Part shown: positions 6,306-25,381 of the stretch, piece by piece
Numbering within the stretch: position 1 is the stretch's first letter
Layout: every line of letters starts with the position of its first letter
From: Patescibacteria group bacterium
Lineage (GTDB): Bacteria > Patescibacteriota > Patescibacteriia > 2-01-FULL-39-33
Assembly: GCA_041649575.1 (NCBI GenBank)
Contig: JBAZMW010000004.1
Coordinates: 103,131-135,130, forward strand
Length of the DNA: 32,000 nucleotides
Reading direction: 5' to 3'
The notes under the pieces: model-generated
The model's database searches: none
The model's input: the letters and a program-made list of their open reading frames with translations, nothing else
Told to the model about the DNA's origin: nothing
Position numbers and translations under genes: made by a program

Positions 6306-6422
6306 CAGGGTCCGGGCGCTGACCTACTTTCCCCATTGAAGAGTATCATCGGCTCAGGAGGGCTTAACTACTGAGTTCGGGATGGGATCAGGTGTGACCC
6401 CTCTGATAGAAGCACCCAGACT
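6306..6422 (-). rRNA. rrf: 5S ribosomal RNA
   Basis: The reverse complement reads ...TCTGGGTGCTTCTATCAGAGGGGTCACACCTGATCCCATCCCGAACTCAGTAGTTAAGCCCTCCTGAGCCGATGATACT...GGGAAAGTAGGTCAGCGCCCGGACC, which matches the 5S consensus. Ends are approximate. Confidence 0.9.
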
Positions 6423-6473
6423 CTGGATTCAAAAATTTTTTGATAAGCAATAATCGTAATCACAATTCTTGCG

Positions 6474-9597
<3,124 letters not shown>

Positions 9598-9962
9598 TCA
9601 CAAGAATTTCAATTACGATTGGAATTCTTGCTCGACTAATTGCTTATCTTTCTACTTCTTTTTTGAGAATAATTGAGAATATTTAATTGTCAAAGTTCTC
9701 TTTTTCATCTTTTTTTCCTTTTAGCGTCCAGAGTGAGGACAACAAATCTTTTTATTGGCCGGCTTTGGGCGTTAAAAAAACCGCCTTGCTCCAAGCGGTG
9801 TTTCTAGCAGCGCAAAAAATGCCCGTTAGCTTGGAGAATGATTAGTGAAATAGTTGATGACTCTCATAAAGCGATGTTAACTAGTTTAAACTAATTGTTG
9901 TTTTTTGTCCAGGCTTTATTTTTTGAATAAGCTGTGGATAATCTATAATTGTTATTACTTTA

Positions 9963-11330: not shown

Positions 11331-11386
11331 GTATACCAATTCTCCGCCTCGGCTTCGCCTTCGGCGAGACGAGCGCCACCAAGGCC
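11331..11386 (-). pseudogene. tRNA-Leu 5' fragment interrupted by a 25-nt GC-rich hairpin
   Basis: GTATACCAATTC...CGCCACCAAGGC repeats 11259-11282 but carries TCGGCTTCGCCTTCGGCGAGACGAG (11349-11373) inserted between duplicated CGCC tetramers. Confidence 0.6.
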
Positions 11387-19182: not shown

Positions 19183-19254
19183 GTCCTCGTAGTTCAGTGG
19201 ATAGAACAAGGGACTCCTAAGCCCTAGACACAGGTTCGATTCCTGTCGAGGACA
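19183..19254 (+). tRNA. tRNA-Arg (anticodon CCT)
   Basis: Acceptor GTCCTCG/CGAGGAC. D arm GTTC-AGTGGATA-GAAC. Anticodon loop CTCCTAA, with an A:G mismatch at the stem closing pair. T arm ACAGG-TTCGATT-CCTGT. Discriminator A. Confidence 0.8.
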
Positions 19255-19308
19255 TAAAAGAAAAATAGAAAATTAATCGGCGGGGTGAGATTCCTGTCGA
19301 GGACATAA
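19238..19308 (+). repeat. 21-bp direct repeat of the tRNA-Arg 3' end (att-like)
   Basis: GATTCCTGTCGAGGACATAAA occurs at 19238-19258 (T loop through the acceptor 3' strand plus 4 nt) and again at 19288-19308. Confidence 0.8.
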
Positions 19309-25015: not shown

Positions 25016-25096
25016 GTATTCGGTGGTTTGGCGCGCAGTCAAACCACCGGTAAATAGATATTAAAGTAATTAATTATAATTCGGGCCTTTAGCTTC

Positions 25097-25125
25097 CGCC
25101 TTGGCTCGTCTTGCTCACCAAGGCG
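25097..25125 (+). other. hairpin whose arms equal the acceptor-stem strands of tRNA-Leu(TAG)
   Basis: CGCCTTGG (25097-25104) / CCAAGGCG (25118-25125). GCCTTGG and CCAAGGC are exactly the 5' and 3' acceptor strands of the tRNA at 11196-11282. Confidence 0.5.
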
Positions 25126-25126
25126 A

Positions 25127-25278
25127 GACAGACAGTTGGCTAGAGGAATCGCCCCACACCTTTTGGGCCCTTAGCTCATCTGGTAGAGCGCATCCATGGC
25201 ATGGATGAGGTGACCGGTTCGATCCCGGTAGGGTCCAAAAGGTGTGGGGAGGTCAAGGGTTGAAATCCCTTAATGTCA
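25127..25278 (+). other. degenerate tRNA-Val-like scaffold enclosing tRNA-Ala(GGC)
   Basis: The 5' side CAGTTGGCTAGAG (25133-25145) matches the tRNA-Val D loop at 12/13 positions. The 3' side GGAGGTCAAGGGTTGAAATCCCTTAATGTCA (25248-25278) lies within a tract (25246-25283) that aligns to tRNA-Val 865-903 at about 30/39 positions, with compensatory T-stem changes. A 13-bp helix (25152-25164 with 25237-25249) holds the inner tRNA. Confidence 0.5.
25165..25237 (+). tRNA. tRNA-Ala (anticodon GGC)
   Basis: Acceptor GGGCCCT/AGGGTCC (G3:U70). D arm GCTC-ATCTGGTA-GAGC. Anticodon arm CATCC-ATGGCAT-GGATG. T arm ACCGG-TTCGATC-CCGGT. No encoded CCA. Confidence 0.9.
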
Positions 25279-25381
25279 AAAAGTAGTATAATAACTGACG
25301 AAGTTAGTTTTTTAGGCCATTATAAATGTGGCTTTTTTTATTTAAATTTAGAAAAAATATTAATATTTTTAATAATTGCTA

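Follow-up and report, generated by a model that had tools for sequence, protein, structure and literature searches.

A complete tRNA-Ala(GGC) gene lies nested inside the remains of a second, Val-like tRNA gene in the genome of an uncultured Patescibacteria bacterium of the candidate phyla radiation (CPR), with a perfect 13-bp helix, here called the clamp, joining the two. The locus occupies positions 25083-25278 of a 32,000-nucleotide contig end (the window), and we consider it to be a relic, now devoid of an open reading frame (ORF), of invasion cassettes that replace tRNA genes. We give this reading a probability of roughly 0.55; under it, the Val-like scaffold would be a pseudogene and the helix would be a cassette end that has been kept as an RNA clamp. 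The reading draws on the anatomy of the nest, its recurrence in other metagenomes, a polarity in which the outer gene is the ancestral one, and the association of such nests with a gene encoding a small GIY-YIG endonuclease.

Anatomy of the nested locus

The inner gene was called by ARAGORN at 25164-25238 and by Rfam at 25165-25237, and its 56.2 bits against an RF00005 gathering score of 29 are those of a canonical bacterial tRNA. Its acceptor stem, GGGCCCT/AGGGTCC, gives G3.T70 and therefore the alanine identity pair G3.U70; CCA is not encoded in the gene. The flanking arms CCCCACACCTTTT (25152-25164) and AAAAGGTGTGGGG (25237-25249) are perfectly complementary and, together with the acceptor stem, make up a 20-nt inverted repeat with 95% complementarity. 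A continuous helix of 13 + 7 bp was present in both the minimum free energy (MFE) and centroid folds of 25090-25290, and the predicted structure, completed by the inner cloverleaf and an outer T-arm hairpin, had an MFE of -87.1 kcal/mol (z = -5.5) that none of 200 shuffles equaled. An earlier reading of the window, made from its letters without database searches (the sequence-only reading), had described a tRNA-Ala(GGC) nested in a 13-bp helix that extends its acceptor stem, and ARAGORN, Rfam, the repeat search, and the fold all bore this out.

The features of the locus and its putative transcription unit are as follows.

25075-25080, + strand: TATAAT, putative -10 box of the transcription unit (read from sequence)
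25083-25094, + strand: 5' fragment of a tRNA-Ala-like gene, GGGCCTTTAGCT, nt 1-12 (repeat match)
25095-25129, + strand: repeated hairpin element, TCC-GCCTTGG-CTCGTCTTGCTCA-CCAAGGC-GAGAC (fold and homologous copies)
25130-25151, + strand: outer tRNA 5' remnant, D-loop-like AGTTGGCTA, then GAG, G, and AATCG (12/13 to the Val D-loop)
25152-25164, + strand: clamp 5' arm, outer anticodon stem CCCCA plus CACCTTTT (fold and inverted repeat)
25165-25237, + strand: intact tRNA-Ala(GGC) with G3.U70, CCA not encoded (ARAGORN and Rfam)
25237-25249, + strand: clamp 3' arm, A73 plus AAAGGTG, then outer anticodon stem TGGGG (fold and inverted repeat)
25250-25278, + strand: outer tRNA 3' remnant, variable loop AGGTC, T arm AAGGG-TTGAAAT-CCCTT, acceptor strand AATGTCA (alignment to Val 865-903 and orphan T-arm search)
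25292-25341, + strand: two terminator-like hairpins with T runs, at the end of the unit (one called at 25314-25334 plus T run; the first, TAACT/AGTTA then GTTTTTT, read from sequence)

No good -35 box was seen upstream of the TATAAT at 25075-25080, and the promoter scan called no promoter there.

Outside the clamp, the 3' flank agrees with tRNA-Val 865-903 at 29 of 37 positions, trailer included, with a score reached by none of 2,000 shuffles; the alignment score was 28 for Val and at most 15 for each other tRNA in the window. In the 5' flank, CAGTTGGCTAGAG and the Val D-loop agree at 12 of 13 positions (0/2,000 shuffles reached this score), the T stem is AAGGG/CCCTT where Val has AGAGG/CCTCT, and the T-loop TTGAAAT lacks C56. 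When CACCTTTT-tRNA-AAAAGGTG was exchanged for the Val loop, ARAGORN called the scaffold a tRNA-Val with anticodon stem CCCCA/TGGGG; judged by this substitution, the inner tRNA occupies the place of the anticodon loop in a degenerate Val-type tRNA. The sequence-only reading had proposed the likeness of the 3' flank to the tRNA-Val 3' half, the D-loop match, the paired T-stem swaps, the missing C56, and an origin of the scaffold from a Val-type gene. The 3' likeness held in a formal alignment against shuffled controls, the D-loop match and both T-arm changes were confirmed, and descent from a Val(TAC)-type tRNA gene is supported. The scaffold at 25130-25278 is eroded, with a broken D stem, C56 gone, and a mismatched acceptor, and its 5' part also aligns with a hairpin element that is repeated at the tRNA-Gly locus of the genome.

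Upstream of the scaffold, the Ala-like 5' stub at 25083-25094, detected through a repeat (25080-25094 versus 25162-25176, 13/15 identical), may be the outermost layer of the locus. The hairpin that follows has arms, GCCTTGG (25098-25104) and CCAAGGC (25118-25124), that are identical to the acceptor strands of tRNA-Leu(TAG), as had been noticed from sequence. The identity stands, and the hairpin is corrected here to a copy of a repeated element, of which a homologous second copy lies 16 kb away after nt 12 of a tRNA-Gly 5' fragment (L215 8873-8910; loci are denoted by L numbers); a related insert is found inside the Leu(TAG) 5' fragment at 11346-11373.

Recurrence and polarity of nested tRNA genes

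The second nest that had been reported at 772-953 exists.

772-976, + strand: sister nest (locus 1), outer Val halves 772-807 and 919-953, inner tRNA-Val(TAC) 825-898
812-819 and 906-913, + strand: sister nest clamp, CCCTGTTG and CAACAGGG, then CGGGT

In this Val nest, inner and outer bodies are 100% identical (778-807 = 831-860, 30 nt; 864-891 = 919-946, 28 nt), the inner and outer acceptor stems differ, and a third, decayed copy of the 3' module occupies 954-976, with a repeat period of 53-55 nt. As far as the letters allow, identical bodies with different acceptors fit either gene conversion confined to the homologous segments or copying in place.

Only 10 T-arm-like motifs were found outside predicted tRNAs on both strands of 1.48 Mb of fetched loci, and 3 of these sit 17-31 nt after a tRNA, namely, in both nests of the window and in L067 (Liptonbacteria). 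When metagenomes were scanned for a T-arm lying 25-50 nt behind another, at least 120 loci were obtained; at least 67 consist of a complete tRNA followed by an orphan T-arm, and both outer halves are present in at least about 12 nests among the matches listed. The sequence-only reading had made its interpretation depend on further instances elsewhere, and the scan supplied them. Large ORFs on five nest contigs (L120, L121, L129, L146, and L178) match bacterial FtsH, NAD-dependent LigA, bacterial AlaRS, and ClpA, and the GC content of nest contigs is 33-47%. Outer and inner tRNAs share an anticodon loop in eight nests (L190, L129, L120, L148, L208, L146, L121, and window locus 1), and in these isotype-matched nests the outer anticodon loop is split between nucleotides 35 and 36 (35|36), e.g., TTTG|TAA, CTTC|TAA, and CTTA|TAA.

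Nesting can go deeper than two levels, as L190 has at least three layers of tRNA-Thr. This nest (L190 1277-968, - strand) has an outermost acceptor GCCGGGG/CCCCGGC and an "empty" clamp site. In L067 (1660-1925, - strand), tRNA-Val(TAC) is held in a helix inside a 266-nt structured RNA (z = -6.0) that is closed by an acceptor-like stem, GCGCGCC/GGCGCGC, plus a T arm. When ARAGORN was run in intron mode on 82 CPR loci, its calls were mostly chimeras of neighboring tRNAs, and L067 was the only true nest among them. Rfam at permissive thresholds returned only tRNA for the locus, five nests, L067, L123, and an element S described below, and no report of nested bacterial tRNA genes was found in the searchable literature. 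The phenomenon is thus recurrent and apparently undescribed in either. Separately, in L156, L093, L135, L165, L194, and L203, a tRNA is followed within 0-17 nt by a copy of its own 3' part, without a 5' half; these 3'-only copies start at the anticodon loop or stem and constitute a separate, att-like kind of duplication.

The direction of events can be read from a syntenic relative, L011, in which Leu(GAG), Val(TAC), a small ORF, and Ala(TGC) follow one another as in the window. The Val gene of L011 is un-nested and has the acceptor GGGCGAT/ATCGCCC, which is the outer type of window locus 1; on this comparison, the outer gene was there first and the inner gene arrived later. The outer-type gene at locus 1 is, by the evidence of L011, no more than the original tRNA-Val of the site, which speaks against the proposal that the scaffold is a dedicated functional RNA; the overall pattern is better explained by tRNA genes being invaded and replaced repeatedly. 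In the same relative, Ala(TGC) at the syntenic site (1571-1646) is nearly identical to the window's Ala(GGC) at 25165-25237 outside the anticodon arm, and the window's own syntenic Ala(TGC) (1290-1365) has a sequence different from that of L011. These likenesses and differences suggest an exchange of tRNA genes between loci. A search for synteny through the neighboring 295-aa protein returned homologues (57-60% identity) in unrelated contexts, and no orthologous locus was alignable among them.

Two types of clamp

Many nests have in common a GC-rich clamp, which we term alpha, composed of CCTGCCCGCCA(TA) 5' of the inner tRNA and (TA)TGGCAGGCGGG 3' of it; in L190, L123, L208, and L067 it comprises 10-13 bp with U.G and C.A at fixed positions. 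The clamp of window locus 1 is a diverged alpha, in which a CC-to-TT change is matched by GG-to-AA. The clamp at 25152-25249 differs from alpha and is termed gamma; its sole homologue is in L134, where CCCAGCACTTTT/AAAGGTGCTGGG surround tRNA-Ile(GAT) within an Ile-like outer tRNA. Because the clamp types differ, locus 1 and the tRNA-Ala locus (locus 2) are not copies of one RNA family.

Compared with the gamma clamp of the locus, that of L134 keeps 13 of 13 pairs; two of these pairs differ in both strands and one in a single strand. Sliding the partner strand lowers the pairing to 38-65%. With two sequences, the shuffle control for covariation gave 127/500 and was not significant. Thus, of the idea that the 13-bp helix covaries, the conserved pairing and the two double-sided changes stood and the statistical part did not. 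The related idea of a maintained scaffold RNA stood only in part, favored by the pairs kept in L134 and disfavored by the eroded D stem, C56, and acceptor pairing of the scaffold.

The perfect 13-bp inverted repeat has the form expected of the termini of a miniature inverted-repeat transposable element (MITE). Within the locus sequence, no direct repeat flanks the arms as a target-site duplication would, and instead of the many copies expected of a MITE-like element, no second gamma clamp was present in the 42 kb of genome examined (the window plus 10 kb upstream), with L134 as the sole copy elsewhere. As an RNA, the predicted 13 + 7 bp helix would provide the approximately 20 bp of uninterrupted double strand typical of an RNase III processing stem.

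The alpha pair is not restricted to tRNAs, flanking a 75-nt non-tRNA sequence in L123 and just a short loop in L067 and at a second L190 site. Its "GCCA" is explained equally well as a CCA end or pseudo-acceptor stem and as part of a palindromic site, TGGCRGGCRGG..CCYGCCYGCCA. In L067, a clamp-type hairpin without cargo (2335-2356) lies approximately 45 nt after tRNA-Arg. A viral contig, L213 (1610-1728, equivalent to L214 6462-6580), has tandem hairpins with CCTGCCCGCCA...TGGCAGGCGGG arms in a larger repeat unit and no tRNA. The clamp was rejected as a promoter because the spacing is wrong. An attP-like junction (Y then X) was also sought in viral contigs and rejected; the only two matches were both in contigs of 66-68% GC and look like chance.

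GIY-YIG endonuclease genes and element S

Small GIY-YIG ORFs occur beside nests and tRNA fragments. In L190, an ORF for an 81-aa GIY-YIG protein (Pfam E = 2e-14) separates a tRNA-Trp 5' fragment from an intact tRNA-Trp; homologues start 13 nt downstream of the nest's outer tRNA in L134, lie between two tRNA-Met genes with a duplicated flank in L120, and adjoin tRNA-Ile in L166. Among the matches listed, 3 of 12 nest contigs and 1 of 108 other contigs carry such an ORF (Fisher p = 0.003). In this region of L190 (646-243, - strand), next to the tRNA-Thr nest, the tRNA-Trp 5' fragment has, in its anticodon loop, a hairpin flanked by a TCCA duplication.

A protein search returned 502 GIY-YIG homologues, few with source names, and those mostly from CPR phyla. 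Genomic contexts were fetched for four further CPR lineages (13 loci, including L217, L222, L226, and L229), in all four of which the 85-aa ORF overlaps the initial 10 nt of an intact tRNA; in these loci, selected by the homing endonuclease gene, nt 8-10 of the tRNA, TAG, serve as the stop codon. An ORF of this kind thus adjoins a tRNA in L134, L190, L120, L217, L222, L226, and L229. The ORFs of L217, L222, L226, and L229 (2001-2258) terminate within the acceptor stem of the tRNA that follows, and these tRNAs differ (Ile-TAT and Val-CAC).

In all four lineages, a tRNA 5' fragment (nt 1-21) lies approximately 90-110 nt upstream of the ORF and is followed by element S, a conserved double hairpin of 72-76 nt (z = -6.6; 94 nt in L134). 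It consists of CCCGAC..GACGGG, then CCCGCCATAAT..GGGCGGGG, then AGC, and always stands between the D-loop GGTA and the GAGC of the tRNA 5' fragment; in L134 it sits in the D-loop of the outer tRNA. One L222 copy has no following ORF, and L217 retains the outer 3' fragment. The copies of element S are as follows.

L217, 1919-1990
L222, 1917-1992 and 2365-2437
L229, 1919-1990
L134, 1821-1914

Genome context

The window forms the tail of a contig of 133-135 kb. Its best GyrA relatives belong to Magasanikiibacteriota, Falkowbacteria, and similar metagenome-assembled genomes, at 71% identity or less, and the window contains a bacterial 23S-5S pair. The locus is not an assembly artifact, since its repeats are shorter than the assembler k of 141, the Logan assembly of run SRR8542065 (L002) agrees letter for letter across 4,478 nt from window position 25200, and nests occur in many unrelated metagenomes.

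tRNA debris is common in this genome. Fragments accompany five of the eight tRNA loci examined in the 42 kb, i.e., those of Val, Ala(GGC), Gly(GCC), Leu(TAG), and Arg(CCT). tRNA-Gly(GCC), which lies on the window's contig approximately 0.6-0.9 kb upstream of window position 1 (L215 8861-9212), is flanked by its own nt 1-12 plus a TCC-hairpin element like that at 25095-25129, and a copy of its T-arm/acceptor 3' strand is found 135 nt downstream. tRNA-Leu(TAG) has a copy of its own nt 1-24 upstream (11331-11385, - strand), broken after nt 12 by the 28-nt hairpin CTCGTCTCGCCGAAGGCGAAGCCGAGGC. In tRNA-Arg(CCT) (19183-19305), the final 17 nt, GATTCCTGTCGAGGACA plus TAAA, recur 34 nt downstream, ahead of a terminator.

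The 23S rRNA match (6311-9598, - strand) spans 3,127 nt against a 2,925-nt model, adjoins the 5S, and probably carries approximately 200 nt of insertion. Upstream of the 23S there is no 16S; a MiaB-like radical-SAM gene and tRNA-Leu(TAG) are there.

Discussion

The favored explanation of the locus can be set out as a series of steps. A short DNA module would land in a resident tRNA gene, in the D-loop or at 35|36 of the anticodon loop, bringing with it a complete tRNA with complementary ends and, as often in relatives, a gene for an 81-87-aa GIY-YIG endonuclease that may target these sites. The insertion would divide the resident gene in two, a 5' and a 3' part, and the incoming tRNA would take over its function, after which the old halves would decay and the endonuclease gene could be lost. 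At 25083-25278, at least two layers would be stacked in this way, comprising the Ala-like 5' stub with its hairpin element, the Val-like outer tRNA, and the inner tRNA-Ala. A single upstream promoter may read the entire unit. Because the 13-bp clamp lengthens the acceptor stem of tRNA-Ala, the inner cloverleaf would fold separately and be kept apart from the surrounding tRNA-like debris; RNase III may cut the 20-bp helix first, and general knowledge of tRNA maturation suggests that RNase P, RNase Z, or exonucleases would free tRNA-Ala, with CCA added afterward. The scaffold would have no decoding role.

Several observations weigh against this explanation. The isotypes of the inner Ala and outer Val-like tRNAs differ, unlike those of most nests, and the outer tRNA is chimeric, with an Ala-like 5' stub and a Val-like 3' half. 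The association of nests with endonuclease genes depends on four contigs of a sample chosen by T-arm pattern, the L134 ORF follows the whole nest instead of lying within it, and no GIY-YIG gene or degenerate remnant of one was found in the window or 10 kb upstream. Furthermore, the model does not account for the constancy of the 35|36 junction, for clamp sequences being conserved, or for element S, and a perfect 13-bp helix beside an eroded scaffold, together with the compensatory L134 changes, could point to an RNA function outside the relic model.

More ambitiously, the nests may be products of an undescribed class of mobile CPR cassettes that replace tRNA genes, bear palindromic clamps and often an 85-aa GIY-YIG protein, home to the D-loop or 35|36, and are tolerated through the substitute tRNA without splicing. 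The segment 25083-25278 would then be a footprint of such a cassette and the clamps would be cis elements for homing or processing. We hold this wider proposal tentatively, at somewhat less than even odds.

Alternatively, the outer tRNA-like structure and clamp might be maintained because the precursor needs both, with the scaffold recruiting RNase P, RNase III, or modification enzymes, setting tRNA-Ala dosage, or forming a stable two-piece tRNA-like RNA. This would account for a helix that is perfect while its surroundings are eroded, the pairs retained and twice changed on both sides in L134, compensatory T-stem differences at the locus and in L190, L208, and L120, the constancy of the U.G and C.A positions of the alpha clamp in six instances, and folds far more stable than those of shuffles. 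The scaffold itself has nevertheless lost its D stem, C56, and acceptor pairing, and across nests the outer halves range from intact to badly decayed, as relics would. The covariation test, on two sequences, was not significant, the same clamps also surround non-tRNA sequence or nothing, and no Rfam family was matched. A functional scaffold is therefore unlikely, although not far-fetched.

Local rearrangement could also have produced debris of this kind without any mobile element, through slippage, template switching at tRNA quasi-palindromes, or gene conversion between paralogues. The identical inner and outer Val bodies with a 53- to 55-nt repeat period, the many partial duplications near tRNAs of this genome, and the lack of an endonuclease gene within the 42 kb examined are all consistent with such an origin, which is left, however, without an account of why the same clamp sequences accompany different tRNA isotypes on unrelated contigs, why the 35|36 junction is constant, why inner and outer acceptor stems are wholly different, and why GIY-YIG ORFs are enriched. 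We see in rearrangement a minor possibility.

tRNA genes are classic integration sites, and the nests might accordingly be scars of phage-type or integrative and conjugative elements that acted through an integrase and have since been lost, leaving att-site duplications. The 3'-only copies that begin at the anticodon loop in L156, L093, L135, L165, and L194, and also that of tRNA-Arg(CCT) in the window, would suit such a history. In the nests, by contrast, 5' and 3' halves both flank a complete tRNA, the insert is just 88-120 nt (88 nt at the locus), and no integrase gene was found nearby; moreover, precise excision would leave a site free of duplication. Integrase scars are thus an improbable source of the nests.

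Another conceivable arrangement is that the inner tRNA acts as an intron of a split tRNA, being cut out by RNase P and RNase Z while the clamp-held halves are ligated or function in two pieces. ARAGORN's intron option does call outer genes tRNAs with 98- to 118-nt "introns," the outer loop halves restore a normal 7-nt anticodon loop in L190, L129, L120, L148, and L208, and GC-rich complementary stretches follow the 5' half and precede the 3' half. Yet no bulge-helix-bulge (3-nt bulges, 4 bp apart) can be drawn at the junctions, as the helix of the locus is continuous and perfect and the junctions of alpha nests face each other at the end of the anticodon stem, and the insert sits at 35|36, not 37|38. 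To our knowledge, no tRNA-splicing endonuclease is known in bacteria. Where the outer loop of a nest can still be read, a rebuilt outer tRNA would add nothing, because it would repeat the inner anticodon; at the locus, the outer tRNA is degenerate and has no loop left, and locus 1 lacks three loop nucleotides. We regard a split tRNA as very improbable. Of the intron types considered, the bulge-helix-bulge intron was ruled out on anatomy and the group I intron on size (an 88-nt insert versus a core of approximately 200 nt or more), on the lack of any intron family at E <= 10 for the locus or in other nests, and on 5' exons that end in G, C, A, or T across nests and not in a fixed U.

The closest known relative of the nesting phenomenon is the association of SegB-type endonucleases with tRNA genes. 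SegB is a free-standing GIY-YIG homing endonuclease of the T-even phage tRNA gene cluster that cuts inside tRNA genes and drives recombination between the tRNA 5' region and its own 3' end (PMC2988022; PMC13096335). Like segB, which is widely colocated with tRNAs, the CPR genes lie directly among tRNA genes. They differ in residing on a cellular CPR chromosome instead of in a phage, in encoding a bare, predicted catalytic domain of 81-87 aa, and in accompanying tRNAs nested in the loop of another tRNA, conserved clamps, and element S; the window itself lacks such an ORF.

Next closest are the disrupted tRNA genes of archaea, i.e., bulge-helix-bulge introns, the split tRNAs of Nanoarchaeum, tri-split tRNAs, and transposing introns, which resemble the nests in the interruption of the anticodon loop, in GC-rich complementary sequences that join the halves, and in similar inserts across isotypes (PMC4090602; PMC4390854; PMC10714607). 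Here, in contrast, the host is bacterial, there is no bulge-helix-bulge, the junction is 35|36, and the insert is a complete tRNA with the same anticodon, so that splicing is not needed. tRNA-targeting integrative elements likewise disrupt a resident tRNA gene whose function is kept by sequence from the invader, with partial copies remaining, whereas in the nests a whole tRNA is supplied by an insert of approximately 100 nt, no integrase is present, and both old halves flank the newcomer. The processing stems of rRNA/tRNA operons and the release of mascRNA from MALAT1 by RNase P and RNase Z offer examples of an RNA held in a long flank helix or excised; in the present case, the helix extends a tRNA acceptor stem inside a tRNA-derived scaffold, and RNase III would be the presumptive cleaving enzyme.

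For genome annotation, nests are a source of error, since tRNA finders with intron options give false intron-containing or chimeric tRNAs at them and an orphan tRNA half may be taken for part of a split gene. The conserved clamps and fixed 35|36 junction also provide a handle on the origin of disrupted tRNA genes, previously studied only in archaea. Should the cassette model hold, a full replacement copy would remove the harm of inserting into an essential gene, a strategy that would join self-splicing introns, inteins, and integrative elements that restore only the 3' end. Such cassettes would imply fast turnover of tRNA genes in the tiny genomes of CPR bacteria and would give the very common small GIY-YIG proteins a concrete role.

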